Origin: Gemmatimonas sp.
Lineage (GTDB): Bacteria > Gemmatimonadota > Gemmatimonadetes > Gemmatimonadales > Gemmatimonadaceae
Length of the DNA stretch: 64,000 nt
Direction: 5' to 3'
Assembly: GCF_021298855.1 (NCBI RefSeq)
Contig: NZ_JAJTHI010000045.1
Coordinates: forward strand, 10,709-74,708
Below, piece after piece: positions 40,911 through 57,210 of the stretch. The first letter of the stretch is position 1. The number at the start of each line of letters is the position of its first letter. The notes beneath the pieces are model-generated. The model had not been told where the DNA came from. It searched no databases and saw nothing but the letters and a program-made list of their open reading frames with translations. A program made the position numbers and the translations under genes.

Positions 40911-40947
40911 TGAGACATCCCTCGTGGACGACCCGGTCACTCCGCTC

Positions 40948-41622: not shown

Positions 41623-41629
41623 CCCGTGC

Positions 41630-42352
41630 ATGAACCCTGCTCCGAGCACCGCTGATCGCATTCTCGTCGTGGACGACGAAACCGAGATCGTCGCCCTGGT
41701 GGCTTACCACCTGGCGAAAACCGGTTATCGCGTCTCCACGGCGTCGTCGGGGCAGGACGCACTCGAGTTGGCGCGTCGTGAGCGCCCGTCGCTCATCGTG
41801 CTCGACCTCATGCTGCCGGGCATGTCGGGGTTCGACGTGCTCGAGCAACTGCGCCTCGACGAGAGTACGCGCGACATCGCCGTCATCATGCTCACGGCCC
41901 GCCGGGAAGAACCTGATCGCATCCGCGGCCTGTCGCTGGGTGCCGATGACTATCTCACCAAACCGTTCTCGCCGGCCGAACTGGTGCTGCGGGTGGCGGC
42001 CATTCTGCGCCGGACCGGGTCCGTGCAGCCGTCCGGCAACACCGATGCCCTGGTCATTGGGCCGCTGCACATCGACCGGGCGGCCATGACGGTGAACGTG
42101 AGCGGCGAGGCCGTGGAGCTTACCCCCACCGAGTTCAAGCTGCTCCTCACCCTGGCCGAGCGCCGCGGGCGCGTCCAGGGACGCGGGCACCTGCTGGAAA
42201 CCGTGTGGGAAGCCGCCCCGGACATTCAGACCCGCACGGTCGACATGCACGTGCAGCGACTGCGCACCAAGCTGGGCACCGCCGGCGACCTCATCGAGAC
42301 CGTGCGCGGATTCGGCTACCGCCTGCGCGCCGCGGCGCCGCGCGCCTACTGA
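41630..42352 (+). CDS. phoB: OmpR-family response regulator, PhoB-like
   Basis: ILVVDDE, LDLMLPG, GADDYLTKPFS, RTVDMHVQRLRTKLG; phosphate gene context. Confidence 0.85.
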   Translation: MNPAPSTADRILVVDDETEIVALVAYHLAKTGYRVSTASSGQDALELARRERPSLIVLDLMLPGMSGFDVLEQLRLDESTRDIAVIMLTARREEPDRIRGLSLGADDYLTKPFSPAELVLRVAAILRRTGSVQPSGNTDALVIGPLHIDRAAMTVNVSGEAVELTPTEFKLLLTLAERRGRVQGRGHLLETVWEAAPDIQTRTVDMHVQRLRTKLGTAGDLIETVRGFGYRLRAAAPRAY

Positions 42353-43792
42353 GTGCGGCTCACCCAGCGACTGCTGCTGCAGAGCGCCGTGGTCGCCACG
42401 CTACTGGTGGCGATCATTCTGGGGGCTGTGGAGTGGCGGGTACGGCACCGGCTGGAGCTGCAGGATACCGTCGCCGTGGGGATGGCCCAACCGGCCGACC
42501 GCGCCAGCCTGGAGGCGGCCGCCGATGAGGCGCTGTTGCGGGCCATCCGCAACGACGTGCTCATTGCCAGTGGCATCGCGCTCATCGTGGCCCTGCTGTT
42601 GGCGCGCGGACTCGCCGGGCAGGTGACGCGCCCCATGCAGGAGTTGCGCGACATGGCGCAGGATCTGGCCGGCGGCGATCTCACCGCCCGACCGTCGCGG
42701 TCCATCAGTGGCGGCGAGGTGGGGGACCTGGCCGATTCGCTGCGCCGCGTGGCCGAGCAGATGGAAACGCGCCTCTGGGAGATGCAGTCGGAGGAAGCGC
42801 TCCTGGTGGCGCTTACGGAGTCGCTCAACGAAGGCGTCGTGGCCGTGGACGCGCGCAAGCGGGTGGTGCGCATCAATGAGCGCGGACGTCAGCTGCTCAA
42901 CTTGCGTCAGCCGCTCCCCTTCCCCGCCAACGAGCTGCCACAGGAACCGCAGCTGCAGGAAGCGTTGCAGCTGGTGTTGTCGGGGGCCCCGCCCATCGTG
43001 CGCGAAATCCAGCTCGCCGGTCGCACGCTGGCGCTCACGGTACGCGCTCTGAGTGGCGGGGGCGCCGTGTTTGCCATGTACGACCTCACCCCGGTTCGCC
43101 GGCTCGAGACGGTGCGCAGCGACTTCGTGGCCAATGTGTCCCACGAGCTGCGCACGCCGCTCACGATCATTGGCGGATTCGTGGAGACGCTGCAGGACGA
43201 CGATGTCCCGCCCGACCTGCGGCGGCAGTTCCTGGGCATGGCGGAGGCCAACGTGCAGCGCATGCAGCGCATCGTCGATGACCTGCTCGACCTCTCCCGC
43301 ATCGAGTCGGGAGGATGGCGTCCGGCGCCAATGGAGCTGCGCGTCGAGGAGCTCGCCGCGGATGCCCTCGCCCCGTTGCAGTCCCGCGCCGATGACAAGG
43401 GAGTATCACTGGGCATCGACGTGGCCCCCAACGCCCGGTTCATCCGGTGCGATCCCACCGCGGCGGGACAGATACTGGTGAATCTCGCCGAGAACGCCCT
43501 GCGCCACACGGCCGCGGGGCGGGTGGTCGTGTTTGCTGAACGCGAGGGGGACGGGGTATGGATGGGGGTGCACGATACCGGCATGGGGATCGGTCCCGAA
43601 CATCTGCCGCGCATCTTCGAGCGGTTCTACCGCGCCGATCCCGGTCGGTCCCGCGAGGCCGGCGGCACGGGCCTCGGCCTCTCCATCGTGCGCCACCTGG
43701 CAGAGGCGCACCACGGACGCGTCCGGGCTGAAAGCACGGTGGGGGTGGGCACGACCATTGCCGTCTGGCTCCCCACCCCACTGCCCGCCTGA
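42353..43792 (+). CDS. phoR: Sensor histidine kinase, PhoR-like (2 TM, HAMP, PAS, HisKA, HATPase)
   Basis: DFVANVSHELRTPLT, NLAENA, DTGMGI, FERFYR, GGTGLGL. Confidence 0.85.
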   Translation: MRLTQRLLLQSAVVATLLVAIILGAVEWRVRHRLELQDTVAVGMAQPADRASLEAAADEALLRAIRNDVLIASGIALIVALLLARGLAGQVTRPMQELRDMAQDLAGGDLTARPSRSISGGEVGDLADSLRRVAEQMETRLWEMQSEEALLVALTESLNEGVVAVDARKRVVRINERGRQLLNLRQPLPFPANELPQEPQLQEALQLVLSGAPPIVREIQLAGRTLALTVRALSGGGAVFAMYDLTPVRRLETVRSDFVANVSHELRTPLTIIGGFVETLQDDDVPPDLRRQFLGMAEANVQRMQRIVDDLLDLSRIESGGWRPAPMELRVEELAADALAPLQSRADDKGVSLGIDVAPNARFIRCDPTAAGQILVNLAENALRHTAAGRVVVFAEREGDGVWMGVHDTGMGIGPEHLPRIFERFYRADPGRSREAGGTGLGLSIVRHLAEAHHGRVRAESTVGVGTTIAVWLPTPLPA

Positions 43793-43845
43793 CCGGACCG
43801 CTGGCGACCTCGCGCCCCGCCGCGACGCCGCCAGCGCGGCCGCGT

Positions 43846-44691
43846 TCAGGCCGATTCCGCCTGCCGTCTGGCGCGGCGACCGGCAAACGCTTCAGCGATG
43901 AGCCGCGGCAGCATGACCCCGGCCGGCCCTTCGATGGGCAGGATGCTGGGGCCCGAGCGCTGCCCCTCCATGGTGGGATTCACCACAATGACCGTGGCCC
44001 CGTGCGTCGCCGAGATCCACGGCAGCGAGGCTGCCGGTTCGACGATGTTGGAGGTGCCCACCGAGATGAACACGTCACACGCCACGGCGGCGTTGCGGGC
44101 GGCCTCGAAGGGGGGCATGGGGAGCGTTTCCCCGAACCACACCACATCGGGGCGCAGGAGCGCCCCGCACTGCGGACAGGTCGGCACGTCGGCGCGCTGC
44201 TCGTCGCTGACCGCCACCGAGCCGGCGCACCCCGCGCTGCACCGCGCGTGCATGAGGGAGCCGTGCAACCGAACCACGTCGCGACTACCGGCCCGCTCGT
44301 GGAGGTCGTCAACGTTCTGGGTGACCAGCGTACAGTGGGCGACTCGTGACGCGAGCGTGACGAGCGCCACATGCGCCGGGTTGGGCTGTGCCGCCCGAAC
44401 CATGGCGCGCCGCGCCGCATACCATTGCCAGACCCGTGTGGGGTGGGCCGCGAAGGCGTCAGGCGTGGCCAGCTCCTGCGGGCTGAACTGCGCCCAGGTG
44501 CCGGTCTGCGCTTCGCGAAACGTGGGGATACCGCTTTCGGCCGACACGCCGGCGCCCGTGAGCACGCACACGTGCTCGGCCGCGCGAAGCGCCTTGGCGG
44601 CGACCGTGAGCGCCTCGGCGCGTGTCTGGGGATCGGTTGGCGGCGGGGAGGCGACCCGGCGCCGCTGAAGATTGGGATCAGTCGGGACCAT
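43846..44691 (-). CDS. cobB: NAD-dependent protein deacylase (class III sirtuin)
   Basis: LTGAGVSAESGIPTFR, WYAARR (YxxR), TQNVDDLHERAG, LHGS, two Cys pairs, RPDVVWFGE. Confidence 0.93.
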   Translation of the reverse strand: MVPTDPNLQRRRVASPPPTDPQTRAEALTVAAKALRAAEHVCVLTGAGVSAESGIPTFREAQTGTWAQFSPQELATPDAFAAHPTRVWQWYAARRAMVRAAQPNPAHVALVTLASRVAHCTLVTQNVDDLHERAGSRDVVRLHGSLMHARCSAGCAGSVAVSDEQRADVPTCPQCGALLRPDVVWFGETLPMPPFEAARNAAVACDVFISVGTSNIVEPAASLPWISATHGATVIVVNPTMEGQRSGPSILPIEGPAGVMLPRLIAEAFAGRRARRQAESA

Positions 44692-44781
44692 ACTCGGGCG
44701 ACAATACTGCGCGGACCTGTCTCGCACCAGATCGCCCGCCCGCGGATACCGCCCCATCGCGCTGACCGGGTCCGGACCTGG

Positions 44782-44850
44782 CTGTCACGACCGGCCGTGA
44801 CCAATTCGTTGCACGACTGTCGAATGATCGAAACCTGAGTCACGGAGCTT
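44782..44850 (+). promoter_or_regulatory. Pho-box-like promoter of the TonB-dependent receptor
   Basis: CTGTCAC at 44782; GTGAC/GTTGC/GTCGA/GAAAC at 44797/44808/44819/44830; GAGCTT at 44845. Confidence 0.5.
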
Positions 44851-44913
44851 GCTCAGTGTCCGGAGCGCACCACGCGCCTCGCGACCTGTCTTCCTCAAAG
44901 CTCCGAATATCCC

Positions 44914-47709
44914 ATGCGGATTTCCGTACACGCGCTATACCGTGCCGCGCGTCGCGCGATGCTGGCGACCACGGTGGCCGTCGTTCCCGCTGCAGGGTCC
45001 GTTCTTCTTCTTCTTCCTGCCTCTGCCCCCGCGCAGGAGGCGGCGACCGGCAAGATCACCGGGCGCATCGTGGATGCCGTCACCGGCCAGCCGATTCCTG
45101 CGGCGCAGATTCAGGTGGTGGGCACCGCCTTCGGCACGCAGACGGCGGTCGATGGCCGGTACACCCTGCTGCGCGTGCCCGCTGGCACCCTCACGCTGCA
45201 GGTGCGCCGCATCGGCTACGGCCCCAAGACCGTCACCGGACTGCTGCTGCCGGCGAACGGCGCGCTGGAGCAGGACATCTCGCTGCGCAGTGCCGACGTG
45301 CAGCTCGCGGCGGTCAGTGTCACGGCCACCAAGGAAAAGGGGTCGGTGAACGACGCCCTCAACGCGCAGAAGAACGCCACGAACGTGGTGAACGCCATCA
45401 CCGCCGAACAGATCGCGCGCAGCCCCGACGGCGACGCGGCCGCGGCCGCGCAGCGCGTGAGCGGCGTGACGGTGCAGGACGGCAAGTACCTGCAGGTGCG
45501 CGGCCTCTCCGAGCGCTATACCACGGCGTCGCTGAACGGGGCGCGCATTCCGAGTCCGGAGCCCGAGCGCAAGGTCGTGCCGCTCGACCTGTTCCCGGCG
45601 AGCCTGCTGCAGGACGTCACCACGGCCAAGACCTTCACCCCCGACATGCCGGGTGACTTCGCGGGCGCCAACGTGAACATCCGCACCCGTGAGTTCCCCG
45701 CGCGCCGGCAGGTGAACTATTCCACGAGCTTCGGCTTCGGTGATCGCGTGCTGGGGCAGACCCTGCCCTTTGCCCCGCGCGCCGGCGGCGAGCTGTTCGG
45801 GAATGCGTCGGCGAACCGCCGCATGCCGGCGGCCATCGCCAGCGCGAACTTCCTGGGGAATGTGTCGCAGTCCCAGTACAACCAGATGGCGCGTCAGCAG
45901 CGCAACGTGTGGAGCCCGTCGCTCCGCAATGGCGGGGTGAACGGCTCGTTCGGCATGTCCACCGGCGGCAACAACATCCTGGGCAAGCGTGTCGGGTATG
46001 TCCTGAGCGGCAACTACGGCTACAGTGAGGAAGTGCGCGCCGACGAGCGCTATGCCATTGGCAACCAGGGCGCGAACAACACGGTCGTGCCCCTCACCGA
46101 AGTGCGCGGGCAGACGGGGCGCGCCAGCGCGTCGTGGGGCGGCATCGCCAACCTGTCGACGCTCGTGGGGCGCAACTCGCGCCTCGCCCTCAACACGACG
46201 GTCACCCGCAGCGCCGACAACGAGGCGCGGACCGACCGCGGCTTCGACGAAAACCTGAACGACAGCATTCAGCGCACCACCCTGCGCTACGTCGAACGCG
46301 GGGTGGCCACCGTAACCGGATCGGGCGAGCACCAGCTGAGTGATCGCAACCGCACCGCCTGGGCCGTGACGTTCGGCCAGACGGATCGGCGCGAGCCCGA
46401 CCGCTCCGATGTGGTGTATGCGCGCACCCCCGAGGGGCCGTATCAGATTCTGGCGTCGCTCGATGGCGCCCGTCGCCTCTATTTCGACCTGCAGGAGAAC
46501 AACGTCACCGGCCAGGTCGATCATACGATCAATCTGGGCGAAGTGGCGAAGCAGAACACGCTCAAGGTGGGCGCCTACCTGCGCACCACCGATCGCACCG
46601 CCGACGCCCCCATCTTCGCCTTCATCAGCCGCGCCGGCGAAAGCGTGGTGCGTCAGACGCCCGATGTGATCTTCGGCGAGGCCCAGGCGTGTGACAACTG
46701 CGCCCTCATCAACGTGCAGCCCATCGGACAGGCCGGCTCCTACCTGGCGAGCGATCGCACGGCGGCCGGCTATCTCATGTCCGATATCGGCCTCGGGTCG
46801 CGGGTGCGCATGATCGCGGGCGCGCGGCTCGAGCAGGCGCGCATCACCGTGGATGCCTCCACCCAGGGCGGGTTCACCACCAGCGCGGTGCTCGACAACA
46901 CCGACGTGCTCCCCTCGCTGCTGCTCAACACGCAGCTCTCGTCCACGCAGAATCTGCGCTTCGGCATCACGCGCACGCTGGCGCGCCCGGAGTACCGCGA
47001 GCTCGCGCCGGTGACCTTCCGCGACGTGCTGGGCGGCGTGAGCGTCACCGGCAACGCCGCGCTGGTGCGGTCACTCATCGACAACGTGGACCTGCGCTGG
47101 GAGATGTTCCCCAATCCCGGCGAAGTCCTCAGTGTGGGCGTGTTCGCCAAGCGCTTCGATCGTCCGATCGAACGTCTCGAGCAGGCCACCTCGGGCGCGT
47201 ACCAGGCGCGTTTCCAGAATGCGCTCAGCGCCACCAACGTGGGTGTGGAGCTCGAGGCCCGCAAGCAGCTGGGAGTCCTTGGCTCGTGGGGCGAGGCCTT
47301 CACCGCCTTTGGCAACGTGACGCTCATGCAGTCGAACGTGGAACTCGACCCCACTGGCGGCCTCACGGTAACCGACCAGAGCCGCCGCCTCGTGGGTCAG
47401 GCGCCGTACGTGATCAATACGGGGCTCACGTACTCGAACATGAGTGGCAACACGAACGCCACGATTCTGTACAACGTGGTGGGCGAACGCATCACGGCGG
47501 CGGGCGTGGTGCCCCTCCCCAACATCGTGGAAAAGCCGCGCCACCTGCTCGACCTGTCGCTGCGGTTCCCCGTGCGCGGCAACCTCTCGGCCCGCATGGA
47601 TGCCCGCAACCTCCTGGACGCCCGCTACCGCTTCATGCAGGGCAATCTGGAGCGGGAGGGATGGAATGCCGGCCGCGTCATCTCGATGGGGCTGAGCTGG
47701 CGGCAGTAG
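44914..47709 (+). CDS. TonB-dependent outer membrane receptor (931 aa)
   Basis: Signal peptide, carboxypeptidase-regulatory-like domain, plug (RVSGVTV..VRGLSERY..VPLDLFP..GDFAG), barrel ending NLLDARY..GLSW. Confidence 0.93.
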   Translation: MRISVHALYRAARRAMLATTVAVVPAAGSVLLLLPASAPAQEAATGKITGRIVDAVTGQPIPAAQIQVVGTAFGTQTAVDGRYTLLRVPAGTLTLQVRRIGYGPKTVTGLLLPANGALEQDISLRSADVQLAAVSVTATKEKGSVNDALNAQKNATNVVNAITAEQIARSPDGDAAAAAQRVSGVTVQDGKYLQVRGLSERYTTASLNGARIPSPEPERKVVPLDLFPASLLQDVTTAKTFTPDMPGDFAGANVNIRTREFPARRQVNYSTSFGFGDRVLGQTLPFAPRAGGELFGNASANRRMPAAIASANFLGNVSQSQYNQMARQQRNVWSPSLRNGGVNGSFGMSTGGNNILGKRVGYVLSGNYGYSEEVRADERYAIGNQGANNTVVPLTEVRGQTGRASASWGGIANLSTLVGRNSRLALNTTVTRSADNEARTDRGFDENLNDSIQRTTLRYVERGVATVTGSGEHQLSDRNRTAWAVTFGQTDRREPDRSDVVYARTPEGPYQILASLDGARRLYFDLQENNVTGQVDHTINLGEVAKQNTLKVGAYLRTTDRTADAPIFAFISRAGESVVRQTPDVIFGEAQACDNCALINVQPIGQAGSYLASDRTAAGYLMSDIGLGSRVRMIAGARLEQARITVDASTQGGFTTSAVLDNTDVLPSLLLNTQLSSTQNLRFGITRTLARPEYRELAPVTFRDVLGGVSVTGNAALVRSLIDNVDLRWEMFPNPGEVLSVGVFAKRFDRPIERLEQATSGAYQARFQNALSATNVGVELEARKQLGVLGSWGEAFTAFGNVTLMQSNVELDPTGGLTVTDQSRRLVGQAPYVINTGLTYSNMSGNTNATILYNVVGERITAAGVVPLPNIVEKPRHLLDLSLRFPVRGNLSARMDARNLLDARYRFMQGNLEREGWNAGRVISMGLSWRQ

Positions 47710-47736
47710 TTCCGCGACCTCCCCGGCGCGGTATCG

Positions 47737-47790
47737 CATGACCCGGTTTCGGTGACACAACCGTGACCGGGTCATGACGTTTTGACGACA
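47737..47790. promoter_or_regulatory. Intercistronic hairpin overlapping four 11-bp-phased GAC repeats
   Basis: CATGACCCGG/CCGGGTCATG arms; GTGAC 47752, GTGAC 47763, ATGAC 47774, ACGAC 47785. Confidence 0.5.
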
Positions 47791-47861
47791 GAGCGCGCGC
47801 TCATTACGGAAGGGATCGTCAGGTCTCGACGATGCCGTTCACCATTCAATCACGACTCCCG

Positions 47862-49598
47862 ATGACGATGACCGTGCGCCTGCGCACTCTCGCGCTCACG
47901 TCGTTTGCCGCGCTGGCCTTCGCCGCCTGCGGTGGCAGTGACGACCCGATTTCGCCCACCCCCACTCCCGCCAACGGCTCGCTGGCGGTGACGGTGTCGG
48001 GGCTCCCCGCCGGTGTGAACGCGGCGGTCACCGTGACCGGGCCGAGCAACTTCAGCCAGGCGGTCACGGGCACCACCACGTTGAGTGTCGCGGCGGGCAG
48101 CTACAGCGTGGCGGCCGCGCAGGTGACGGCCAGCAACGTGCGCTACAACGCGACCATCACCGGCTCGCCGGCCACGGTTGCGGCGAATGCCACGGCCACC
48201 GTCACGGTGGCCTACGCGGTTGCCGCCAACCCCACGGTGGTGCTGAGCGGCTCCATCGCCACCAACCGCACGCTCACCCCCGATACCAGTTACGTGTTGC
48301 GCGGCTTCGTCTACGTGAACAGTGGCGCCACGCTCACGGTGAACGCGGGTACGCGCATCGTGGGGGACACCACCGCGCTGGGCTCGGCGCTGTTCGTGCT
48401 GCGTGGGGCCCGCCTGGTGGCCAACGGCACGGCCGCGGCGCCCGTGGTCTTCACCTCGCAGCGGTCCGCCGGCAATCGCTCGCCGGGTGACTGGGGCGGC
48501 CTGGTCATCGTGGGCAATGCCCGCGCCAACCGCGTTGGCAACGTGATCGTGGAAGGCTCGAACGGCTCGGTGGTGGGCGCCGATCCGGCCGGCATCGTGT
48601 ACACCGGCGGCACGGTGGACAGTGACAACAGCGGCACGCTGCGCTACGTGCGCGTGGAGTTTGCCGGGTACGCCACGCTGGCGGATGCCGAGCTCAACTC
48701 CTTCACGTTCGCTGCGGTGGGCAGCGGGACCACGGTCGAGTACGTGCAGGCGCTGGCCGGCCTCGACGACCACTTCGAATGGTTCGGCGGCACGGTGAAC
48801 GGTCGCTACCTCGTCTCGTACGAGTCGGGCGACGATCATTTCGACGGGTCCGAAGGCTATCGCGGCCTCAATCAGTTCCTCATCGGTCTGCAGTCCACCT
48901 ACCTCACGCCGCGTGCCGGTGCCGGTGCCGTGTCGGCCGACCCGCAGGGCTTCGAAGTCGACGGGTGCAACGGCGGTGGCTGTGTGGCGCCGTCGGGGGC
49001 CAATGCGCAGAGTGCCGGGCGTGACGAGGGGCTGTGGAACATGAACGTGTTCGCGAACTTCACGCTCGTCGGTCCGGCGTCGGGCGTAACGGTGCCGGGC
49101 AGCGGTGGCGTGGGTGCCGTGCTCCGCCGCGGCACGGGTGGCTACTACGTGAACGGCGTGATCGCCCGCTGGCCGCGCGGCGGCATCTCACTGCGCGACT
49201 CCACGTCCAACAACCGTTTCCAGGTGGATTCCCTCATCGTGCGCAACCTGTACTTTGCCGAAAACGGTGGCGCCGACGGCGGCTTCGATGCGGCGGGCAC
49301 GAACTTCGGCCAGGCCAGCGCCCTTACGGCCCGCAACGCGAACATCGTGGTGGGCACGGGTGTGACGGCGGCGACCCTCTTCACGGCACTGCCCGCCACC
49401 CCGACCAACGGCGCCAGCCTCGACTGGTCGCCGGCGGCCAACTCGCCGATCGCCACGGGTGGCCTGGCCACCTTCGCGGCCGACCCGCGCATTGCGGCGC
49501 GCGTGGGCACCTTCATCACCCCCACCGTGTACCGCGGCGCCGCCGCCCCCGGCGGGCCGAAGTGGTGGGAAGGCTGGACCAGCTACGCCCGCAACTGA
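47862..49598 (+). CDS. Lipoprotein with Ig-like domain and parallel beta-helix-like domain, function unknown
   Basis: AFAAC lipobox; Thr/Ala/Val-rich Ig-like part; GDWGGLVIVGNA, DNSGTLRYVRVEFAG, DDHFEWFGGTV, GDDHFD, GFEVD, WWEGWT. Confidence 0.85.
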   Translation: MTMTVRLRTLALTSFAALAFAACGGSDDPISPTPTPANGSLAVTVSGLPAGVNAAVTVTGPSNFSQAVTGTTTLSVAAGSYSVAAAQVTASNVRYNATITGSPATVAANATATVTVAYAVAANPTVVLSGSIATNRTLTPDTSYVLRGFVYVNSGATLTVNAGTRIVGDTTALGSALFVLRGARLVANGTAAAPVVFTSQRSAGNRSPGDWGGLVIVGNARANRVGNVIVEGSNGSVVGADPAGIVYTGGTVDSDNSGTLRYVRVEFAGYATLADAELNSFTFAAVGSGTTVEYVQALAGLDDHFEWFGGTVNGRYLVSYESGDDHFDGSEGYRGLNQFLIGLQSTYLTPRAGAGAVSADPQGFEVDGCNGGGCVAPSGANAQSAGRDEGLWNMNVFANFTLVGPASGVTVPGSGGVGAVLRRGTGGYYVNGVIARWPRGGISLRDSTSNNRFQVDSLIVRNLYFAENGGADGGFDAAGTNFGQASALTARNANIVVGTGVTAATLFTALPATPTNGASLDWSPAANSPIATGGLATFAADPRIAARVGTFITPTVYRGAAAPGGPKWWEGWTSYARN

Positions 49599-49665
49599 CC
49601 GGCCGCGCGATCGGCACCTACCTTTCCGGTAACGATCCGCCGCGGTGATGTCGTGTGCTGCGTGA

Positions 49666-49708
49666 AACGGCCAGGGTCGCGATGCGGCCCTGGCCGTTCT
49701 CCTGTTTT
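49666..49708 (+). terminator. Intrinsic terminator-like hairpin after the beta-helix lipoprotein
   Basis: 15-bp stem AACGGCCAGGGTCGC/GCGGCCCTGGCCGTT (one G-U pair), followed by CTCCTGTTTTT. Confidence 0.65.
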
Positions 49709-49724
49709 TCACCGTTCTGCTCTC

Positions 49725-50366
49725 ATGCCACAGCCTTCGCGTCCTTCTGTCCTGCTCGCCGTGGCCGTCGCCACATGCCTCGCGGCGGCATGCGGCGAAC
49801 CGTCCCCACGCACGGCGGCCGATTCCCAGGCGGCTCACGTCGCCGAGGTCATCGCCGCCGGCGGCACGGTCGATTCCATCCTGCCCATGGCCGAGCAGCT
49901 GCGTCGCTTCCGGGTGGGTCTCGACTCGGTGGACACGCTGCGCCACGCGGCGCCCGACCGCGAGTCGCTGGTGCGCCGCTTCCTGACGGCACTCTCGACG
50001 AGCGATACAGCCACGCTCAACGCCCTCACGCTCGACCGGGCCGAGTTTGCGTATCTGTACTACCCCACATCGGCCATGAGCCAGCCACCGTATGAAGCGC
50101 CACCCCAGTTGCTGTGGGGACAGATCATGACCAGCAGCAACGAGAGTCTGCCCAAGGCGCTGGCGCGACTGGCCGGCACCTCGGTTTCGCTCGCGCAGCT
50201 GCGCTGCCCCGATTCCGCGACGGTTGAGGGGAAGAACCGGCTGCATCAGCAATGCGCGCTGCGCCTGCGTGCGGGGTCGACCACGCTGCCCGACGGGCGC
50301 TGGTTCGGCACCATCCTCGAGCGTGAGGGGCGATTCAAGTTCATCGGCTACGCCAACGCGTTATGA
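49725..50366 (+). CDS. Hypothetical lipoprotein (213 aa)
   Basis: LAAAC lipobox; ATGA overlap with pstS. Confidence 0.78.
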   Translation: MPQPSRPSVLLAVAVATCLAAACGEPSPRTAADSQAAHVAEVIAAGGTVDSILPMAEQLRRFRVGLDSVDTLRHAAPDRESLVRRFLTALSTSDTATLNALTLDRAEFAYLYYPTSAMSQPPYEAPPQLLWGQIMTSSNESLPKALARLAGTSVSLAQLRCPDSATVEGKNRLHQQCALRLRAGSTTLPDGRWFGTILEREGRFKFIGYANAL

Positions 50367-51517
50367 GGGCGTGGCGCCGACACGGCGTACGTCTTTCGGC
50401 CGTGCTTGCCGTTGCCACACTGCCTGCGGTGTCGTGTGGCGAGGGGGTGCGCCAGCCCCCCATGGACAGCGCCGGCGCCCCGGCGGCAACCAGTGAGGGC
50501 GTGTCCGTAGCCGAATCCCAACGGCTGCGGCTGACCGGCGTCGGCGCCACGCTGCCGTACCCGCTGTATGCGCGCTGGTTCAACGAGTATGCGGCGGTCG
50601 CCCCCGTGCGCATCACCTACCGGTCGGAAGGATCGCCGCAGGGGATCGCCGCGGCGCTCAACGGGTCGGCGGATTTCGGCGCATCCGACATTCCGGTGTC
50701 CGATAGCGCCATGGTGGCCAGCGGCCGTTCGGTGGTGCATATCCCCATGGCGGTCGGCGCCGTGGCGATTACGTACAACGTCCCCGGCGCCACGCGTCCG
50801 CTGCGCCTGTCCGGGGAGGTCATCGCCGATCTGTTTCGCGGGCGCATTGCGTTTTGGGACGATGCACGCCTTCGCGCCATCAACCCCGGCGTGACGCTGC
50901 CGCACCTCGCGGTGCGCCCCGTGCGTCGCAGCGACGGCAGCGGCACGGCGCGCATCTTTGCCCGGTACCTGCAGTTGGTGCAAGGCGCGGACGCCCCGTG
51001 GCCAGACGGGGACTCGGTGATCGTGCGTGACGGGAACGAGGCGGTCGCCGCCGAGGTGAAGGCCACGGCCGGAGCGGTGGCGTACCTCGAGGTCGTGTAT
51101 GCGCGACAGAACCGTTTGCCCGCGGCGCACGTCCGCAATCGCGCGGGGCAGTTCGTGTCGCCCATGCCCTTCGAGATTGCGACCGCTGCGGCCAACACCC
51201 TCGACGGTCTCGCCCCGTTCGACGACGAGGGGGTGAGCGGGTTTCGCCTGTCACTGCTGGACGCCGAGGGCAGACAGGCGTATCCGCTGGCGGCCTTCAC
51301 TTGGCTATTGATCGTACCGTCGCAACTCTCGGCGGCCAAGCGTACCGCCCTTGCCGATTTTCTGCATTGGGCGTTTCTCGAAGGGGCGGCAAGCGCCAGC
51401 AGCATGGGCTATGTGCCGCTCCCGTCCGCCGTGGCGGACGCCGTGTTGGCGCGGGTGGATGCCGCGCTGCGATGCAACCCTTGCGCGACGGGGGCGGCTT
51501 CCGGTACGGTACGCTGA
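50363..51517 (+). CDS. pstS: Phosphate-binding protein PstS (lipoprotein)
   Basis: GATLPYPLY, GS, DFGASD, RSDGSGT, AYLE, YPLAAFTW, MGYVPLP; AVSC lipobox. Confidence 0.92.
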   Translation: MRAWRRHGVRLSAVLAVATLPAVSCGEGVRQPPMDSAGAPAATSEGVSVAESQRLRLTGVGATLPYPLYARWFNEYAAVAPVRITYRSEGSPQGIAAALNGSADFGASDIPVSDSAMVASGRSVVHIPMAVGAVAITYNVPGATRPLRLSGEVIADLFRGRIAFWDDARLRAINPGVTLPHLAVRPVRRSDGSGTARIFARYLQLVQGADAPWPDGDSVIVRDGNEAVAAEVKATAGAVAYLEVVYARQNRLPAAHVRNRAGQFVSPMPFEIATAAANTLDGLAPFDDEGVSGFRLSLLDAEGRQAYPLAAFTWLLIVPSQLSAAKRTALADFLHWAFLEGAASASSMGYVPLPSAVADAVLARVDAALRCNPCATGAASGTVR

Positions 51518-51593
51518 GGGTTGCCGATCGACCGGGGGAACCGGACCACAGGCCGGCGTGACCCGCACCTGTTCTCCTGCCCCCGGCTGCCAC

Positions 51594-53186
51594 ATGACGG
51601 CTCCAGTAGCAAGCACCGGCGATGTTCGCATCGCGGCCATCGACATCGGGTCGAACTCGGTGCGGCAGATCATCGCCGATGTCTCGCCGGCGGGCGGCAT
51701 TCGGGTGGTCGATGAAATGAAGGCCATGCCCCGTTTGGGCGATGGCCTGGAGAGCACGGGGGCGCTGTCGACCACCGCGATCGACTCGGCCGTGGCTGCG
51801 GTGCAGCGCATGGTCACGCTGGCCCGGCAGCTGGCTGCCGCGCGTATCGAGATCGTGGCCACCAGCGCGGTGCGTGACGCGAGCAATTCGCGCGAGTTCA
51901 CGGCGCGCCTCACCGCTGCCACCGGGCAACCGGTGCGGGTCCTCAGCGGCGAAGAGGAAGCGCTGCTCTGTTTCCGCAGCGCTCTGGCGCACTTCGAGCT
52001 GGGCGCGGGACGCACCGTGGTCATGGACATCGGGGGCGGTTCCCTCGAACTCGTGCTCGCGAAGGATGGTCTCATCGAGCGCGTGGCCTCGCTCCCCTTC
52101 GGGGCCGTGCGGCTCACCGAGAAGTTCCTCACCCCGGCCGTGCGGCCGCGCCGGGTGCGGGCGCTGCGCGAGCATGTGCGCGAGGGGCTGCGCAAGGCCG
52201 TGCCGGTCAAGGACTGGCGCGGCGCCCAGGTGATCGGGTCAGGCGGCACGTTCACGAATCTCGCGGGCATCGTGCTGGCGCGGCAGCACGTCACCGTGCG
52301 TTCGGCGCACGGCACGCGCGTCACGCGGGCCGAACTCGAGCATGTGCTGGAGTGGCTGCAGCGCATGGAGGCGCCGGAGCGGCAACAGGTGCCCGGGCTC
52401 AACCCTGCGCGCGCCGACATCATCGTGGCGGGGCTTGCCGTGGCGGCCGAAGTGCTGGCACGCTTCGACCCGCGCGATCTGCTCACCTCGGCCTTCGGCA
52501 TTCGCGAAGGCATTCTGCTGGAAGCCGCCCGCGTTACCCCCCGGGTGGCCGATCCCGGCGTCGCTCGCGACCGATCGGTGCGGGAGTTCGCGGAACGCTG
52601 TCACTTCGAGGCGCCGCACGCCCGGCAGGTGCAGGCCCTGTCGCTGCAGCTGTTCGATGCCCTCGAGGCACGCCTCGGACTCACGGCGGCCGACCGCCGC
52701 CTCCTGTCCGACGCGGCCCTGTTGCACGATGTGGGCTACCACATCAACTACGAAAAGCATCACAAGCATTCGTTCCATCTCATCTCGCACGCCGATCTGC
52801 TGGGCATGACGCCGGCCGAGCAGATCATGATTGCGCACATTGCGCGCTATCATCGCGGCGCGCCGCCCAAGGCCAAGCACGCGGGCTTCGGTCAGCTCGA
52901 CCGCGCCACCCGTGAGCGCATCGTGAAGCTGTCGGCGCTGCTGCGGTTCGCCGACGGCATGGATCGCGGGCATGTGAGCGCCGTGGGCGGCATGGCGGTA
53001 AAGTGGACGACCGACGCCGTGCGGGTCACGGTGCATGAAGCCGAAGGCGCCACGAACGTGCGGCTCGAATGCTGGGGCGCGAGCCGGAAGCGCCGGCTGC
53101 TGGAGGAGGTGCTGGGGCGGCCGATCATCGTCCTGCTTCCCGACGGCACCCCCATCAGCGCCGACGACGAAGGCGACGGCGAGTGA
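51594..53186 (+). CDS. ppx: Exopolyphosphatase Ppx/GppA with HD domain
   Basis: AAIDIGSNSVR, ATSAVRDA, SGEEEA, DIGGGSLEL, GIREG, LLHDVG. Confidence 0.94.
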   Translation: MTAPVASTGDVRIAAIDIGSNSVRQIIADVSPAGGIRVVDEMKAMPRLGDGLESTGALSTTAIDSAVAAVQRMVTLARQLAAARIEIVATSAVRDASNSREFTARLTAATGQPVRVLSGEEEALLCFRSALAHFELGAGRTVVMDIGGGSLELVLAKDGLIERVASLPFGAVRLTEKFLTPAVRPRRVRALREHVREGLRKAVPVKDWRGAQVIGSGGTFTNLAGIVLARQHVTVRSAHGTRVTRAELEHVLEWLQRMEAPERQQVPGLNPARADIIVAGLAVAAEVLARFDPRDLLTSAFGIREGILLEAARVTPRVADPGVARDRSVREFAERCHFEAPHARQVQALSLQLFDALEARLGLTAADRRLLSDAALLHDVGYHINYEKHHKHSFHLISHADLLGMTPAEQIMIAHIARYHRGAPPKAKHAGFGQLDRATRERIVKLSALLRFADGMDRGHVSAVGGMAVKWTTDAVRVTVHEAEGATNVRLECWGASRKRRLLEEVLGRPIIVLLPDGTPISADDEGDGE

Positions 53187-53193
53187 GCCGACC

Positions 53194-53220
53194 CGAGGCG
53201 GACGCGTTCAGTCCGCCTCG
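53194..53220. terminator. Hairpin between convergent ppx and ppk1
   Basis: Perfect 10-bp stem CGAGGCGGAC/GTCCGCCTCG followed by a pyrimidine tract. Confidence 0.65.
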
Positions 53221-53228
53221 CCCTTCTT

Positions 53229-55328
53229 CTAGCGCTTGGGCGGTCGCGCCGCCTCGGTACCCCACGGTTCCTTCATGAAAATCTGGTGCGTGGCGCGCGC
53301 GGCCTCACCCCGTGGCTCCCGCCGGCGGTACTGCCCGTCGGCCCCCAATTCCCAGGCCTGCCGGTTGTCGCTCAGGCAGGTGGCCAGCACCGCCTCCAAC
53401 CCCTTGTGCAGGAGTTGGTCCTCGATGGGCGTCATGACTTCCACGCGCCGATCGAAGTTGCGCGGCATCCAGTCGGCCGAGCCGATGTAGTACTCCGGGT
53501 TGCCGGCGTTCGCGAAGAACGCCAGCCGTGAGTGCTCGAGGAAGCGCCCGATGATGCTCACCACCCGGATATGCTCGCTCATGCCCGCCAAGCCCGGCAC
53601 GAGGCAACAGATGCCGCGCACGATGAGGTCGATCTTCACTCCGGCCTGCGACGCGCGGTACAGGGCCGCAATGATCTCGGGATCGACGAGGGCGTTCATC
53701 TTGGCAATGATGCGCCCGCCCTTCCCGGCGATCGCGTGCGCCGTTTCCCGTTCGATGAGTTCCAAGAGGCGCGCACGCAGCGAGACCGGGGCCACCGCGA
53801 GCCGCCGATAATGCTTCTGCCGCGACACACCGGTCAGCGAATTGAACAGGTCGGACAGGTCGGCGCCGATTTCCGGATGACAGGTGAACAACCCCATGTC
53901 GGTGTACAGCCGGGCCGTCCTGCTGTTGTAGTTGCCGGTGCCGATGTGCACATAGCGACGAATGCCGTCGGCGTCTCGGCGCACGACGAGTACCGTCTTG
54001 GCGTGGGTCTTGAGCCCCGGCAGCCCGTATGCCACATGAATGCCCACACTTTCCATGGTGCGGGCAAAGGTGATGTTGTTGGTCTCGTCGAAGCGCGCCT
54101 GCAGCTCGATGATGACCGCCACCTGCTTGCCCGCTTCGGCCGCCTCGGTGAGCGCCCGGACGATGGCCATGTCACCGGAAGTGCGGTACAGCGTGAGCTT
54201 GATGGCCAGCACCTGCGGATCGTTGGCCGCCGCCTCGAGAAACGTCTCGACCGATGCGGTGAACGACTCGAAGGGATGGTGCACGAGCACATCGCGCTCG
54301 CGAATCACGTCGAACAGGTTGCGCCCGTCCCGGAAGGCGGGCGGCACCTGCGGCGTGTGCGGCGGGTCGCGCAGTTCGGGAAGGTCGGTGAGGGCGAGCT
54401 GCAAGAGGTCACCCATCTCGAGCAGGTCATCCACGTCGTGCACATCGTCCGGCCCGAGGGGCGCCACCAGCTGGGTCTCGCTTTCGCTGAGCTCCTCCAG
54501 CAGCAGCGCCCGAATGCGTTCGGGCATGTCGTGCTGCACTTCGAGCCGCACCACTTCACCAAAGCGCCGCTGGAAGACCTGCTGTTCGATGGTTTCGAGC
54601 AGATCCTCGGGCTGGTCCATCTGGCCCAGGTCGAGGTCGGAGTAGCGCGTGATGCGGAAGGTGAACCAGCGCTGCACCTCCATGCCCGGGAACAGTGCTC
54701 CGAGGTGGGCGCCAATGACATCCTCGAGCGGCACATAGCAGTGTCCGCGCCCGAACGACACCCACCGCGGCAGCGAGCGCGGCACCTTCACGCGCGCGAA
54801 GTGCGCCTTGCCCGTGACCGGGTCGCGAATGTCCACCGCCAGCGAGAGCGAGAGGTTGGAGATGTAGGGGAACGGGTGTCCGGGGTCGACCGCGAGCGGC
54901 GTGAGCACCGGGAACACCTGGGCCTCGAAGAACTCGTGCACGCGCGCCCGCTCGGCATCGTCGAGCGTCTCCATCTTGACCAGATGGATGTCGTGGCGCG
55001 CGAGTCCGGGCAGCAGTTCGCGCTTGAGGACGCGACGCCGGCGGGCCAGCAGTTCGCGCACGCGCGTGCGAATGGCGACCAGCTGCTCGGCCGGTGCCAG
55101 CGGATCGGGGGCGTATTGCGGGGCCCCCGAGGCCACCTTTCGGCGCAGCCCGGCGACCCGCACCATGTAGAATTCGTCGAGGTTGGTGCTGAAGATCGCC
55201 AGGAACTTGAGGCGCTCGAGCAGCGGCACCCGTTCATCGAGGGCTTCTTCCAGCACCCGCGCATTGAAGTCGAGCCACGAGAGCTCGCGATTCAGATAGG
55301 GCAGCGACAGCGACGTGACCGAGGACAT
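53229..55328 (-). CDS. ppk1: Polyphosphate kinase 1
   Basis: LNRELSWLDFNARVL, NLDEFYMVRV, DPGHPFP, HHPF, ARFDE, KTHAK, GTGNYN, GRFLEHSR, SADWM. Confidence 0.98.
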   Translation of the reverse strand: MSSVTSLSLPYLNRELSWLDFNARVLEEALDERVPLLERLKFLAIFSTNLDEFYMVRVAGLRRKVASGAPQYAPDPLAPAEQLVAIRTRVRELLARRRRVLKRELLPGLARHDIHLVKMETLDDAERARVHEFFEAQVFPVLTPLAVDPGHPFPYISNLSLSLAVDIRDPVTGKAHFARVKVPRSLPRWVSFGRGHCYVPLEDVIGAHLGALFPGMEVQRWFTFRITRYSDLDLGQMDQPEDLLETIEQQVFQRRFGEVVRLEVQHDMPERIRALLLEELSESETQLVAPLGPDDVHDVDDLLEMGDLLQLALTDLPELRDPPHTPQVPPAFRDGRNLFDVIRERDVLVHHPFESFTASVETFLEAAANDPQVLAIKLTLYRTSGDMAIVRALTEAAEAGKQVAVIIELQARFDETNNITFARTMESVGIHVAYGLPGLKTHAKTVLVVRRDADGIRRYVHIGTGNYNSRTARLYTDMGLFTCHPEIGADLSDLFNSLTGVSRQKHYRRLAVAPVSLRARLLELIERETAHAIAGKGGRIIAKMNALVDPEIIAALYRASQAGVKIDLIVRGICCLVPGLAGMSEHIRVVSIIGRFLEHSRLAFFANAGNPEYYIGSADWMPRNFDRRVEVMTPIEDQLLHKGLEAVLATCLSDNRQAWELGADGQYRRREPRGEAARATHQIFMKEPWGTEAARPPKR

Positions 55329-55374
55329 GGTCCATGTGGCCGGCGGTCGAACAGGACCGCCGGCCGTCTCCGCG

Positions 55375-56412
55375 TCAGAGAGGATTGAAGGCCGCGAGCA
55401 GCCAGTAGCTCAGTGCTGCCATGCCCGCACTCGCGGGGATGGTAATGACCCACGCCCACACAATGCGGCTGGCCAGCCCCCAGCGCACGGCCGACAGGCG
55501 ATTGGTGGCCCCCACCCCCACGATCGCGCCGGTGATCGTGTGGGTCGTGGACACGGGAATCCCCAGTTTGGAGGCGGCGAGAATGACCATCGCGCCGCCC
55601 GTTTCGGCACAGAAGCCGCCCACGGGGCGCAGTTTGGTGATGCGGGTCCCCATGGTGTGCACAATGCGCCAGCCACCGAAGAGCGTACCCAGCGAGATCA
55701 TGGTGTAGGCACTGAGCTCCACCCACACCGGGATGACGTCGAGCGACGTGACGTGGAAGTGCGCCAGCCACCCGGTCTGGTTGGCGAAGGTGGCCTGCGT
55801 GGCCACGAGCAGCCCCACGATGATGCCCATCGTCTTCTGGGCATCGTTGCCACCGTGCGCGAGCGAGAGCAGCGCCGAACTGGTGAGTTGCAGCACCCGG
55901 AACACCCTCTCCGCCTTCGTGTTGACCACGTTGCGGAAGAGGTTGAAGACCAGCACCATGAGCAGGAAGCCCATGAGCGCGCCGAGCATGGGCGAGAGCA
56001 CGATGGCCGAGAGCGTCTCGATCCACTTCTTGCCCCACAGCAGCGCCGAGAAGCCGACCTTGGCCACCGCGGCGCCGGCATAGCCGCCGATGAGGGCGTG
56101 GGAGGAGCTCGACGGAATGCCGAACCACCACGTGATGAGATTCCACGCAATGGCGCCCAGCAGCCCGCCCAGAATGACGTTGGCATCGACCACGTTGAGG
56201 TCGATGAAGCCGGCCGCGACCGACTTGGCCACGGCGGTGCCCACGAAGAACAGCGCGGAGAAGTTGAACACCGCCGCCCAGATGACGGCGGCGAGGGGAC
56301 TCAGCACGCGCGTGCCGACGATGGTGGCGATCGAGTTGGCGGAGTCGTGGAAGCCGTTGATGAAGTCGAAGGCCAACGCAACCGCGACGATGAAGATGAC
56401 GAAGGTGACCAC
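55375..56412 (-). CDS. pit: Inorganic phosphate transporter, PiT family
   Basis: GFHDSANSIAT, PSSSSHAL, AHGGNDAQK, PVSTTH. Confidence 0.96.
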   Translation of the reverse strand: MVTFVIFIVAVALAFDFINGFHDSANSIATIVGTRVLSPLAAVIWAAVFNFSALFFVGTAVAKSVAAGFIDLNVVDANVILGGLLGAIAWNLITWWFGIPSSSSHALIGGYAGAAVAKVGFSALLWGKKWIETLSAIVLSPMLGALMGFLLMVLVFNLFRNVVNTKAERVFRVLQLTSSALLSLAHGGNDAQKTMGIIVGLLVATQATFANQTGWLAHFHVTSLDVIPVWVELSAYTMISLGTLFGGWRIVHTMGTRITKLRPVGGFCAETGGAMVILAASKLGIPVSTTHTITGAIVGVGATNRLSAVRWGLASRIVWAWVITIPASAGMAALSYWLLAAFNPL

Positions 56413-56430
56413 GGAGCGATCAGCGGCGCG

Positions 56431-57042: not shown

Positions 57043-57136
57043 GGCAGCGTGTTGGATTGAGGAGGTGTTCGGCGCCGCAGTGGGGACGGGCTCGGCAGAA
57101 GCTGCGGGCTTCGCGTCCCGGTGTGACTGCGGCTGT

Positions 57137-57210
57137 GTAACGAAAACGTCACCGAGGGAACTCCGCCATCCACCCGCTGGCCCCGATTTCCCTTGTTACA
57201 GAGGCGAGAC
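57137..57210 (-). promoter_or_regulatory. Two pairs of 11-bp-spaced GTNAC-like repeats upstream of DUF47-pit-ppk1
   Basis: GTAAC 57137 / GTCAC 57148; GTTAC 57195 / GAGAC 57206. Confidence 0.35.

Follow-up and report, generated by a model that had tools for sequence, protein, structure and literature searches.

A transporter and lipoprotein pair of a known family among phosphate genes

Which nutrient does Gemmatimonas sp. take up with the outer membrane proteins that it encodes among its phosphate genes, and is this uptake system an undescribed one? The genes in question lie in a stretch of 64,000 nucleotides (contig NZ_JAJTHI010000045.1, positions 10,709 to 74,708; G+C content about 68%), which is called the window in this paper and whose proteins have their closest relatives in Gemmatimonas species. 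A preliminary description made from the sequence alone had suggested that a run of five co-oriented genes encodes an undescribed uptake system for a larger phosphorus substrate. We found the five open reading frames (ORFs) where they had been placed: on the forward strand, they code for a TonB-dependent transporter (TBDT, 931 aa, 44914-47709; Pfam, NCBIfam), a lipoprotein with a Beta_helix_4 domain (588-aa ORF, 47832-49598; PF28492 via homologues), a small lipoprotein (213 aa, 49725-50366), the phosphate-binding protein PstS (384 aa, 50363-51517), and a Ppx/GppA exopolyphosphatase (530 aa, 51594-53186; Pfam Ppx-GppA plus domain III). Gene content, protein folds, homology, synteny, repeat arrays, a hairpin, and the RNA pattern in situ were observed, and on this basis the locus is probably a Gemmatimonas member of the ElpS/FII/BT4056 family of phosphate-starvation outer membrane modules, working by the mechanism proposed below. 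The term "undescribed" does not hold, since the pair of TBDT and beta-helix lipoprotein belongs to the family of ElpS, FII (Fjoh_0545/0546), and BT4055/BT4056, for which the Pfam entry PF28492 exists. The locus represents an already known but functionally open family in a new phylum, with an extra partner of predicted NTF2-like fold.

The lipoprotein ORF of 588 aa more likely starts at M11 (47862). Its lipobox (..AALAFAAC33GGSDD) contains Cys33, which is near-invariant in the homologue alignments. A Pfam and NCBIfam search set without PF28492 returned no family for either lipoprotein. PF28492.1 (Beta_helix_4) is precomputed for a 99%-identical protein (P0001) and for 120/120 homologues listed, and it covers the Bacteroides homologues, too. 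A literature search for PF28492 did not retrieve any paper, and sequence searches of the PDB yielded chance matches only, or FN3 matches to the stalk of relatives. At E ≤ 0.001, the family comprises 7083 clusters at 50% identity.

The AlphaFold2 model of this protein (pLDDT 87, pTM 0.81) consists of a disordered tether, an Ig-like sandwich (residues 49-131), a parallel beta-helix (about 135-480), and a well-packed C-terminal segment. When we compared the model with the PDB by Foldseek, the matches were weak (E at least 0.0046, TM at most 0.38), and the top ranks (most of the top 24) were right-handed beta-helix enzymes and tailspikes. The stalk resembled the N-domain of BT_1938, which is another TBDT-associated lipoprotein. 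The Ig-like stalk and the parallel beta-helix, both foreseen in the preliminary description, were thus confirmed by the model and its structural matches. Since Foldseek detected only weak matches at the level of the fold class in the PDB for both lipoprotein models, neither protein has a solved relative.

Alignments of members from Gemmatimonadota, Hymenobacter, Sphingomonas, and Marinobacter were used to define conserved residues. Here, we found conserved polar positions (GDWGG, D265-x-S267, R274, E276, Q306, N409, R432) and a conserved ladder of Asp and Glu on successive rungs of the helix (D313; D334, D335, D338; E375, D377). The acidic motifs GLDDHFEW, ESGDDHFD, and GFEVDG, to which attention had been drawn earlier, are all present in the protein. 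At the C-terminus, W578, W582, and T583 are conserved, as is the motif YRGA..WWxGWT. In its general form, Y-[RV]-G-A-(6-9)-W-x-x-G-W-T (window 49515-49595, residues 562-588; L005 7857-9290; L002 7362-8990), this motif closes the lipoprotein in Gemmatimonadota, Hymenobacter, and Marinobacter, and it may be a docking or capping element. The same W-rich motif precedes the beta-helix in a Sphingomonas protein, in a permutation-like arrangement. The sequence C-x-x-D-D after the lipid Cys is found in the 588-aa lipoprotein and in Bacteroidales homologues, not in the small lipoprotein, and this signature is a hint at surface export of the beta-helix lipoprotein.

Many Beta_helix_4 relatives (P0122-P0270) are larger, with a length of 1000-4900 aa, and contain the domain two to four times, sometimes more often, or carry arrays of the stalk domain; many of those with two to four domains have 1000-2400 aa. 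Of 11 long multi-copy relatives tested, seven carry sorting tails of the type IX secretion system (T9SS). We also searched these 11 proteins for fusions with enzyme domains and found none, only T9SS tails, PKD, and generic beta-helix matches. The Beta_helix_4 domain, therefore, exists not only as partner of TBDTs but also as secreted multi-copy surface protein.

In the TBDT, a signal peptide is followed by a CarboxypepD_reg domain and a plug, which were both recognized by Pfam, and by the barrel; its orthologues carry PF00593 and PF14905. The best NCBIfam match was TIGR01782, under the cutoff of this model, and the score with the siderophore-receptor model (16 bits) was negligible. With the SusC/RagA model TIGR04056, only residues 47-189 were matched (44 bits, cutoff 368), and the transporter is not a member of this family. 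A SusC/SusD pair was, therefore, rejected, as the TIGR04056 score is far below the cutoff and the partner has a beta-helix fold and no SusD match in Pfam. These properties of the partner, together with its conserved acidic ladder, agree with the earlier statement that it is not SusD-like.

Comparison with relatives described in the literature

In Caulobacter crescentus, the lipoprotein ElpS (CC_0170) adjoins the TBDT CC_0171 and a type II secretion system (T2SS); it is located at the cell surface and is made only under phosphate starvation, while iron has no effect (Le Blastier et al., 2010; PMC2996285). ElpS is freed by a T2SS-dependent protease and has no phosphatase activity of its own with p-nitrophenyl phosphate (pNPP), but its overexpression raises the phosphatase activity of the supernatant (PMC2996285). 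As in this system, the lipoprotein gene of the window stands beside a TBDT gene, and its product is homologous to proteins of Sphingomonas and Indioceanicola that are encoded in an elpS layout (for the Sphingomonas protein 37% identity over 223 aa, E 2e-27, BLASTP). In contrast, the alphaproteobacterial gene order is reversed (lipoprotein first) and a T2SS follows, which is not the case at this place in the window. Moreover, no stalk domain has been reported for ElpS (about 50 kDa), which also has neither an NTF2-like partner nor pstS or ppx next to its gene.

The PUSIV of Flavobacterium johnsoniae consists of the TBDT Fjoh_0545 and the lipoprotein FII (Fjoh_0546, pectin-lyase fold) and belongs to a phoBR cluster (Lidbury et al., 2020; PMC8115612). 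Phosphate depletion alone induces both of them, by factors of 2^8 to 2^10; at low phosphate, FI to FIII rank with the most abundant proteins of the exoproteome, and FII is related to ElpS (PMC8115612). In the same study, plant-associated Bacteroidota were reported to be without PstSCAB. As of September 2026, the Pus3 and Pus4 loci are still called hard to predict. The order of TBDT and beta-helix lipoprotein near phoBR is the same in the window, and the domain set Plug, CarbopepD_reg_2, and OMP_b-brl_3 occurs in Gemmatimonadota and Bacteroidota orthologues. However, the F. johnsoniae cluster has OprP and a CARDB lipoprotein in place of the NTF2-like lipoprotein, pstS, and ppx. To the sampled Bacteroidota homologues, the window lipoprotein is about 35-42% identical.

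A lipoprotein of Bacteroides thetaiotaomicron (P0525), which carries PF28492 and is encoded directly after a non-SusC TBDT, shares 35% identity over 249 aa with the window protein, in the core of the helix (E 2e-34, BLASTP). Judging from the published description and from the neighboring nuo genes, P0525 is probably BT4056. BT4055/BT4056 have been proposed to be a TBDT with a non-SusD "lid" and homologous pairs, ElpS included, were found in conserved proximity in 621 genera; for this class of pairs, AlphaFold-Multimer and cofitness support the role as lid (Price et al., 2023; bioRxiv 10.1101/2023.03.17.533168). The window shares with this system a non-SusC TBDT, a lipoprotein of the pectin-lyase superfamily, and the acidic signature after the lipid Cys. 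In contrast, the Bacteroides protein has 403 aa and no Ig stalk, and its neighbors are an AraC regulator and a PAS/GAF kinase rather than Pho genes.

The SusCD-like PusCD1/2 of Flavobacterium are importers of phospho(inositol)lipids (bioRxiv 10.64898/2026.09.03.749221). They resemble the window pair in being a phosphate-starvation TBDT with a surface lipoprotein, and import of organophosphorus compounds for hydrolysis in the periplasm is the mechanism most plausibly shared. However, the PusCD lipoprotein is SusD-like and helical, with a tryptophan stacking site, whereas the window partner is a beta-helix. From the literature on homologues, we carry over to Gemmatimonas, by analogy, a phosphate-specific induction of the pair and its exposure at the surface.

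Repeat arrays, a conserved hairpin, and RNA in freshwater

Upstream of the TBDT gene, we found an array of four direct repeats with an 11-bp period (P1, 44794-44837, + strand), which ends 77 bp upstream of the start codon and has the sequence CCGTGAC-n4-TCGTTGCA-n3-CTGTCGA-n4-TCGAAAC. The Gemmatimonadota consensus at this place is CCGTGAC-n4-TCGTTGCA-n3-CCGTnnn-n4-TCGAAAC, and the core CGTT[GA]CA is present, inside an array of four repeats with 11-bp period, in 35/47 Gemmatimonadota loci. Tandem direct repeats with 11-bp spacing are the architecture of PhoB and PhoP boxes. We then constructed a 44-bp position matrix from 22 other genomes, from which the window site was excluded, and counted hits above 8 bits. 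The scan of the 64-kb window gave three such places, all at promoters of phosphate genes, and none in 10 shuffles. P1 itself scored 52 bits. The second array (57112-57155, - strand; 25.7 bits) is located before PhoU_div-PiT and ends 70 bp upstream of the start codon, and the third one (40854-40897, + strand; 19.3 bits) lies between a 5'-nucleotidase operon and udk-phoB-phoR, 51-94 bp upstream of the udk start. It can be seen that the three arrays end 51-77 bp ahead of start codons. The assumption of a Pho-like promoter made in the preliminary description has thus gained comparative support, as P1 is kept across Gemmatimonadota and the matrix hits phosphate promoters only. The motif may be considered a candidate Pho box for the Gemmatimonadota, a phylum for which none has been described.

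A shorter Pho-box-like element (P2, 47752-47778, + strand; GTGAC-n6-GTGAC-n6-ATGAC) separates the TBDT gene from the lipoprotein gene, in the spacer that lies downstream of the former. It was missed by the 44-bp matrix and was found by alignment of the spacers, in which its core is kept in 10/10 close Gemmatimonadaceae loci. P2 is unique in the window, where 0.01 copies are expected by chance. A looser pattern of two repeats gave three matches compared with 0.63 expected, which is barely over chance, and was not relied on. Directly 3' of the lipoprotein gene, there is a GC-rich hairpin with a 15-bp stem followed by a T-rich tail, CTCCTGTTTT (49666-49698, + strand). A strong hairpin of different sequence occupied the same position in 13 of the 20 related loci checked, and the hairpin of the window is likely to be a partial terminator or a stabilizing 3' structure of the lipoprotein mRNA. 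An Rfam search of positions 40000-58000 gave no known RNA.

The region was contained in five freshwater metatranscriptomes from four studies. DNA runs from freshwater covered it evenly (depth about 105). In the four runs without flat background, the RNA contigs were deepest over the beta-helix lipoprotein gene, and in three of the five metatranscriptomes the contig depth was clearly highest there. For X25, depths of 16-23 over this gene compare with 1-5 over the TBDT gene, and for X29 the corresponding values were 8 and 0-2. In two independent runs, RNA contigs start at 47820 and 47821, about 42 bp downstream of P2, and contigs end at 49629-49661, just ahead of the hairpin. At the hairpin, the depth dropped about four- to sixfold (X17, X25) or was near zero beyond it (X29, X33). 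Only a weak signal reached the small lipoprotein gene; some RNA was detected over udk-phoB and PhoU_div (four runs), but little or none over phoR, sir2, ppx, and ppk (four runs without flat background). Because contig depth is crude, this pattern is taken as suggestive. It fits a separate, stronger transcription of the beta-helix lipoprotein gene and, by analogy, the reported excess of the FI-FIII lipoproteins over TBDTs in Flavobacterium. In X17, a contig of high depth starts at 47145 (47145-47166), inside the 3' part of the TBDT gene, and not at 47820 as in X25 and X29; this could be due to processing of the RNA, to a difference between strains, or to the assembly.

The second repeat element, the conserved hairpin, and the RNA pattern divide the run, so that it is not one simple operon, and a single five-gene operon was rejected.

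The conserved unit and its neighbors

To define which genes belong together, we carried out a genome scan that yielded 80 loci (54 from Gemmatimonadota, 26 others, nearly all of them from Bacteroidota), to which four Gemmatimonadota loci were added; neighbors were counted by tblastn with the window proteins. Directly upstream of the beta-helix lipoprotein gene and on the same strand, a TBDT gene was found in 45/49 loci of Gemmatimonadota and 21/24 of Bacteroidota. The small lipoprotein gene follows directly downstream in 40 of 45 Gemmatimonadota loci and in none of 24 Bacteroidota loci. For phoB-phoR, a position no more than 5 kb upstream of the TBDT gene was seen in 22/39 versus 1/19 loci, and for PstS, a position no more than 3.5 kb downstream in 18/38 versus 0/23. 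When only loci of at least 15 kb were considered, at least one Pho gene was present in 22 of 32 Gemmatimonadota and six of 20 Bacteroidota loci. The association with phoBR was also seen in a Longimicrobium locus, and the gene order of G. phototrophica is exactly that of the window. One Gemmatimonadaceae locus contains TBDT, beta-helix lipoprotein, and small lipoprotein alone in a non-Pho context, with no PstS, Ppx, or Ppk nearby.

Outside the Gemmatimonadota, Chitinophagaceae carry PiT and PhoU_div upstream of the pair with an adjoining kinase and regulator, and in Chryseobacterium a regulator and a kinase are divergent upstream of it, as in F. johnsoniae. When a plasmid collection was searched by tblastn, homologues adjoined TBDTs in Sphingomonas, Indioceanicola, Pseudoalteromonas, Bacteroides finegoldii, and Hymenobacter. 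The Sphingomonas and Indioceanicola loci have the elpS layout (lipoprotein, TBDT, gsp genes; gspNDE in Sphingomonas), and the Pseudoalteromonas pair follows exbBD-tonB. These homologues and the literature bear out the statement in the preliminary description that similar pairs without assigned substrate occur in other phyla. Taken together, the conservation of TBDT and beta-helix lipoprotein across phyla defines these two as the conserved unit, which is extended by the small lipoprotein in Gemmatimonadota. As neighbors in a Pho supercluster, PstS and Ppx stand outside the machine proper. What is new here is the small lipoprotein of Gemmatimonadota as third partner and the position of the module between phoBR and pstS(CAB-phoU)-ppx/ppk-pit, besides the two repeat arrays, the hairpin, and the dominance of the lipoprotein mRNA in freshwater described above.

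The ORF of the small lipoprotein (49653-50366) has its true start at M25 (49725), which gives a protein of 213 aa with an invariant Cys23. We found 412 homologues, and all named ones are Gemmatimonas-type; none of the 412 had a Pfam match. Invariant motifs are PPYEAPPxLLW and FG..ER.GRFKF, and there are two invariant Cys besides the lipid Cys. In the AlphaFold2 model (pLDDT 89), the N-terminal half is helical and a curved sheet is present; Foldseek gave weak matches to NTF2, ketosteroid-isomerase, and cystatin-like folds (E at least 0.035). According to this model, the protein has a predicted NTF2-like fold, and it is the Gemmatimonadota-specific third member of the module.

Its gene and pstS share 4 bp, both in the window and in G. 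phototrophica. PstS reached the equivalog level of TIGR00975 (279.8 bits, cutoff 205) and has a probable lipobox; most orthologues in the phylum carry the lipobox Cys. We searched the 64-kb window for pstC, pstA, pstB, and phoU and found none of them. In several relatives, the small lipoprotein gene and ppx are separated by a full pstSCAB-phoU, and one such order is pstS-pstC-pstA-pstB-phoU-ppx (L012 12489-19327). The window and G. phototrophica differ from this in having a diverged pstS (about 50% identity) that leads straight to ppx. Either the permease genes have moved elsewhere, or the PstS of the window is an orphan binding protein.

The ppx ORF opens at 51351, and its true start is at 51594 (530 aa), as in the gene call of G. 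phototrophica. The N-terminus, MTAPVASTGDVRIAAIDIGSNS (MTAPVAS..IDIGSNS), contains no signal peptide, which indicates a cytoplasmic enzyme. Ppx/GppA domains are present according to Pfam, and TIGR03706 gave 265 bits (cutoff 307). As Ppx has no signal peptide and its gene stands tail-to-tail with ppk, which is the ordinary cytoplasmic pairing, it is no pointer to uptake of external polyphosphate.

Proposed mechanism and substrate

At low phosphate, the adjacent PhoB-like regulator would bind to the two arrays of 11-bp-spaced repeats, of which P1 would drive the TBDT gene and P2, separately, the gene of the beta-helix lipoprotein. The lipoprotein mRNA would mostly end at the conserved hairpin. 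With an array of its own and an mRNA end at the hairpin, the lipoprotein would be produced in larger amounts than the transporter. It would be exported to the surface and stand there on its Ig-like stalk, where one face of the beta-helix, with its Asp/Glu ladder and probably a bound divalent metal, may capture or cut a phosphorus ligand that is too large or too scarce for porins. The lipoprotein would then pass this ligand to the TBDT for import at the expense of TonB energy. In the periplasm, phosphate might be freed, for instance by the co-regulated secreted 5'-nucleotidase, and be picked up by the lipoprotein PstS for the inner-membrane carriers (Pst or PiT), while Ppx and Ppk would run the cytoplasmic polyphosphate store. 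The NTF2-like small lipoprotein is presumably a Gemmatimonadota-specific accessory of the module. In this scheme, we infer binding of PhoB, the lid or capture function, the metal bridging, and the substrate. That the locus encodes an outer membrane uptake module of the phosphate regulon, as had been suggested, is supported by the arrays, by the synteny with phoBR and pstS, and by the induction of homologues.

As substrates, phosphoesters derived from nucleic acids or nucleotides would be preferred over other organic or polymeric phosphate, and these in turn over inorganic forms. We rank the phosphoesters first because the operon of 5'-nucleotidase, deaminase, and phosphorylase and the udk gene are conserved under the same motif, and because an endonuclease gene stands beside the Hymenobacter pair. 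The operon (35352-40730, - strand) comprises a double 5'-nucleotidase of 1067 aa with signal peptide, which is a secreted enzyme (37527-40730, - strand), an adenosine deaminase, and a purine nucleoside phosphorylase. It is divergent from udk-phoB-phoR, and 5'-nucleotidase and udk adjoin phoBR in many Gemmatimonadota loci. The Pho-box-like array between the divergent operons and the conservation of these neighbors suggest that scavenging of nucleotides is part of the phosphate response of the phylum. The udk gene (uridine kinase) extends from about 40948, its likely start, to 41622 (+ strand). It is followed by a phoB-like response regulator (41630-42352, + strand; best NCBIfam match PhoB, 241 bits, below cutoff) and a phoR/pnpS-like histidine kinase (42353-43792, + strand; best NCBIfam matches PnpS/PhoR, below cutoffs), and this pair (41630-43792) is presumed to regulate the module.

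Several observations weigh against our proposal. Most directly, no experiment on any member of the family has identified a ligand. Binding of PhoB to the arrays is deduced from their architecture and position, and both the response regulator and the kinase score under the NCBIfam equivalog cutoffs for PhoB and PhoR. Contig depth is a poor measure of expression, and the flat background of X17 may be DNA. The acidic ladder fits the binding of a cation or metal as well as a catalytic site. No Pho gene is found near the gut Bacteroides copies and in about two-thirds of the sampled Bacteroidota loci. The BT4055/56 mutants had no clear phenotype, and AlphaFold-Multimer predicted few contacts for that pair (bioRxiv 10.1101/2023.03.17.533168). 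ElpS is released from the cell, and deletion of elpS left the phosphatase activity unchanged (PMC2996285), so that a soluble role is possible. Finally, the window is tied to ElpS and Fjoh_0546 by synteny and by published statements of homology, sequences having been compared for the other relatives.

The release of ElpS leads to the alternative that the beta-helix lipoprotein is a shed extracellular factor, which acts in the medium by promoting the breakdown of teichoic acids, phosphoglycans, or extracellular nucleic acids, or by aiding other phosphatases, and that the TBDT takes up the products without a lid. We consider this scenario rather unlikely, although a good deal can be said for it: ElpS is cleaved and released and its overexpression raises the phosphatase activity of the supernatant, FI to FIII are highly abundant in the low-phosphate exoproteome, and the multi-copy relatives are secreted by T9SS. 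In the window, the lipoprotein gene has its own promoter-like element and RNA far above that of the transporter gene, and its product, which bears acidic residues on one rung after the other, has a fold of the class known from polysaccharide hydrolases, lyases, and tailspike depolymerases. However, the order of TBDT and lipoprotein hardly varies from phylum to phylum, and this speaks for a partnership of a physical or stoichiometric kind. In addition, ElpS is inactive on pNPP and its deletion has no phenotype, the Foldseek matches to enzymes are weak (see above), and no catalytic motif could be mapped. Uptake of external polyphosphate or oligophosphate with processing by PstS and Ppx, to which the presence of these two genes had been thought to point, appears improbable to us. 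In its favor, members of the genus Gemmatimonas accumulate polyphosphate, the genes ppx, ppk, pit, and pstS stand side by side, and the acidic ladder could bind polyphosphate via Ca or Mg. Nevertheless, Ppx is a cytoplasmic enzyme without signal peptide, its gene forms the usual internal pair with ppk, tail-to-tail, and it is only loosely linked to the module: pstCAB-phoU part the module from ppx in relatives, the module of three genes is also found where PstS, Ppx, and Ppk are all missing from the vicinity, and the pairs of Proteobacteria and Bacteroidota are without ppx.

An energized outer membrane route for inorganic phosphorus, by which orthophosphate or small metal-phosphate complexes stripped from minerals would pass straight to PstS, is still less probable. 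The module of Gemmatimonadota lies between phoBR and pstS and overlaps the latter by 4 bp, a full pstSCAB-phoU follows it in relatives, no hydrolase gene is located within it, and the Asp/Glu ladder suits the binding of Ca or Fe. On the other hand, we know of no TonB-dependent transporter for phosphate, which crosses porins; the association with pstS was not seen outside the Gemmatimonadota (0/23 Bacteroidota loci), and the co-regulated secreted 5'-nucleotidase points to organic sources. In a broader form of this idea, the three-part module wired into pstS would be a TonB-energized pathway for orthophosphate, metal-phosphate complexes, or short polyphosphate. We give this broader version little credence, but if true, the module would be the outer membrane counterpart of Pst and would introduce a new substrate class for TonB-dependent transport. 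Iron chelates or glycans are the cargo of most characterized TonB-dependent transporters, the fold of the lipoprotein is similar to that of pectin-active enzymes, and gut Bacteroides copies have no Pho genes nearby, so that the pair might serve iron, a siderophore, or a pectin-like glycan and lie among phosphate genes by chance. This we regard as highly improbable, as the same repeat motif is present at the other phosphate promoters of the window, the synteny with phoBR and pstS is conserved phylum-wide, and ElpS and Fjoh_0545/0546 respond to phosphate depletion, not to iron or nitrogen (PMC2996285, PMC8115612). In the preliminary description, induction by iron or carbon in place of phosphate had been named as a refutation of the phosphorus interpretation, and the response of these homologues goes against such a refutation. 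Considering this phosphate-only induction of homologues, the Pho synteny, and the negligible match of 16 bits to the siderophore-receptor model, the siderophore or iron reading was rejected.

Capture by the lipoprotein and TonB-dependent import of a phosphorus ligand, which we favor, would be of wider interest. Pairs of Beta_helix_4 lipoproteins and TBDTs are very widespread, and in phosphate-starved Flavobacterium and Caulobacter they belong to the proteins with the strongest induction and the highest abundance. The Gemmatimonadota version offers the most explicit genomic context seen, with phoBR, module, pstS(CAB-phoU), ppx/ppk, and pit in one block, and the metatranscriptomes suggest strong transcription of the lipoprotein gene in lakes. 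As the same locus is present in cultured relatives such as G. phototrophica, the question of import is directly testable. The answer bears on phosphorus cycling in freshwater and soil and on phosphorus removal from wastewater.

Additional features of the locus

A gene for a Sir2-family deacetylase (43846-44757, - strand) lies between phoR and the TBDT gene. It is found at this place only in the Gemmatimonas-like clade, and in distant Gemmatimonadota phoR abuts the TBDT promoter. Downstream of ppx, a terminator-like hairpin (53194-53220) is common to this gene and the convergent gene of Ppk1 (53229-55328, - strand), which is followed by PiT (55375-56412, - strand) and PhoU_div (DUF47; 56431-57042, - strand). 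The latter two form an operon (55375-57042). A low-depth contig of the DNA run X1 (depth 2 vs. about 105) joins 42631 to 53146 and thereby skips 10.5 kb from phoR to the end of ppx. This junction may represent a rare deletion variant without the whole module or an assembly chimera.

Two of the plasmid loci deserve comment. On the Hymenobacter plasmid NZ_CP110137.1 (L005 7857-9290), the Beta_helix_4 lipoprotein is labeled "cell shape-determining protein MreB", which looks like a misannotation; among its neighbors are a porin, a T9SS protein, and a DNA/RNA non-specific endonuclease. On B. finegoldii NZ_OY725943.1 (L004 6866-8119), a frameshift or sequencing error divides the homologue into two ORFs, and the gene table does not contain it; intact copies of 417 aa are common in other B. 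finegoldii assemblies.

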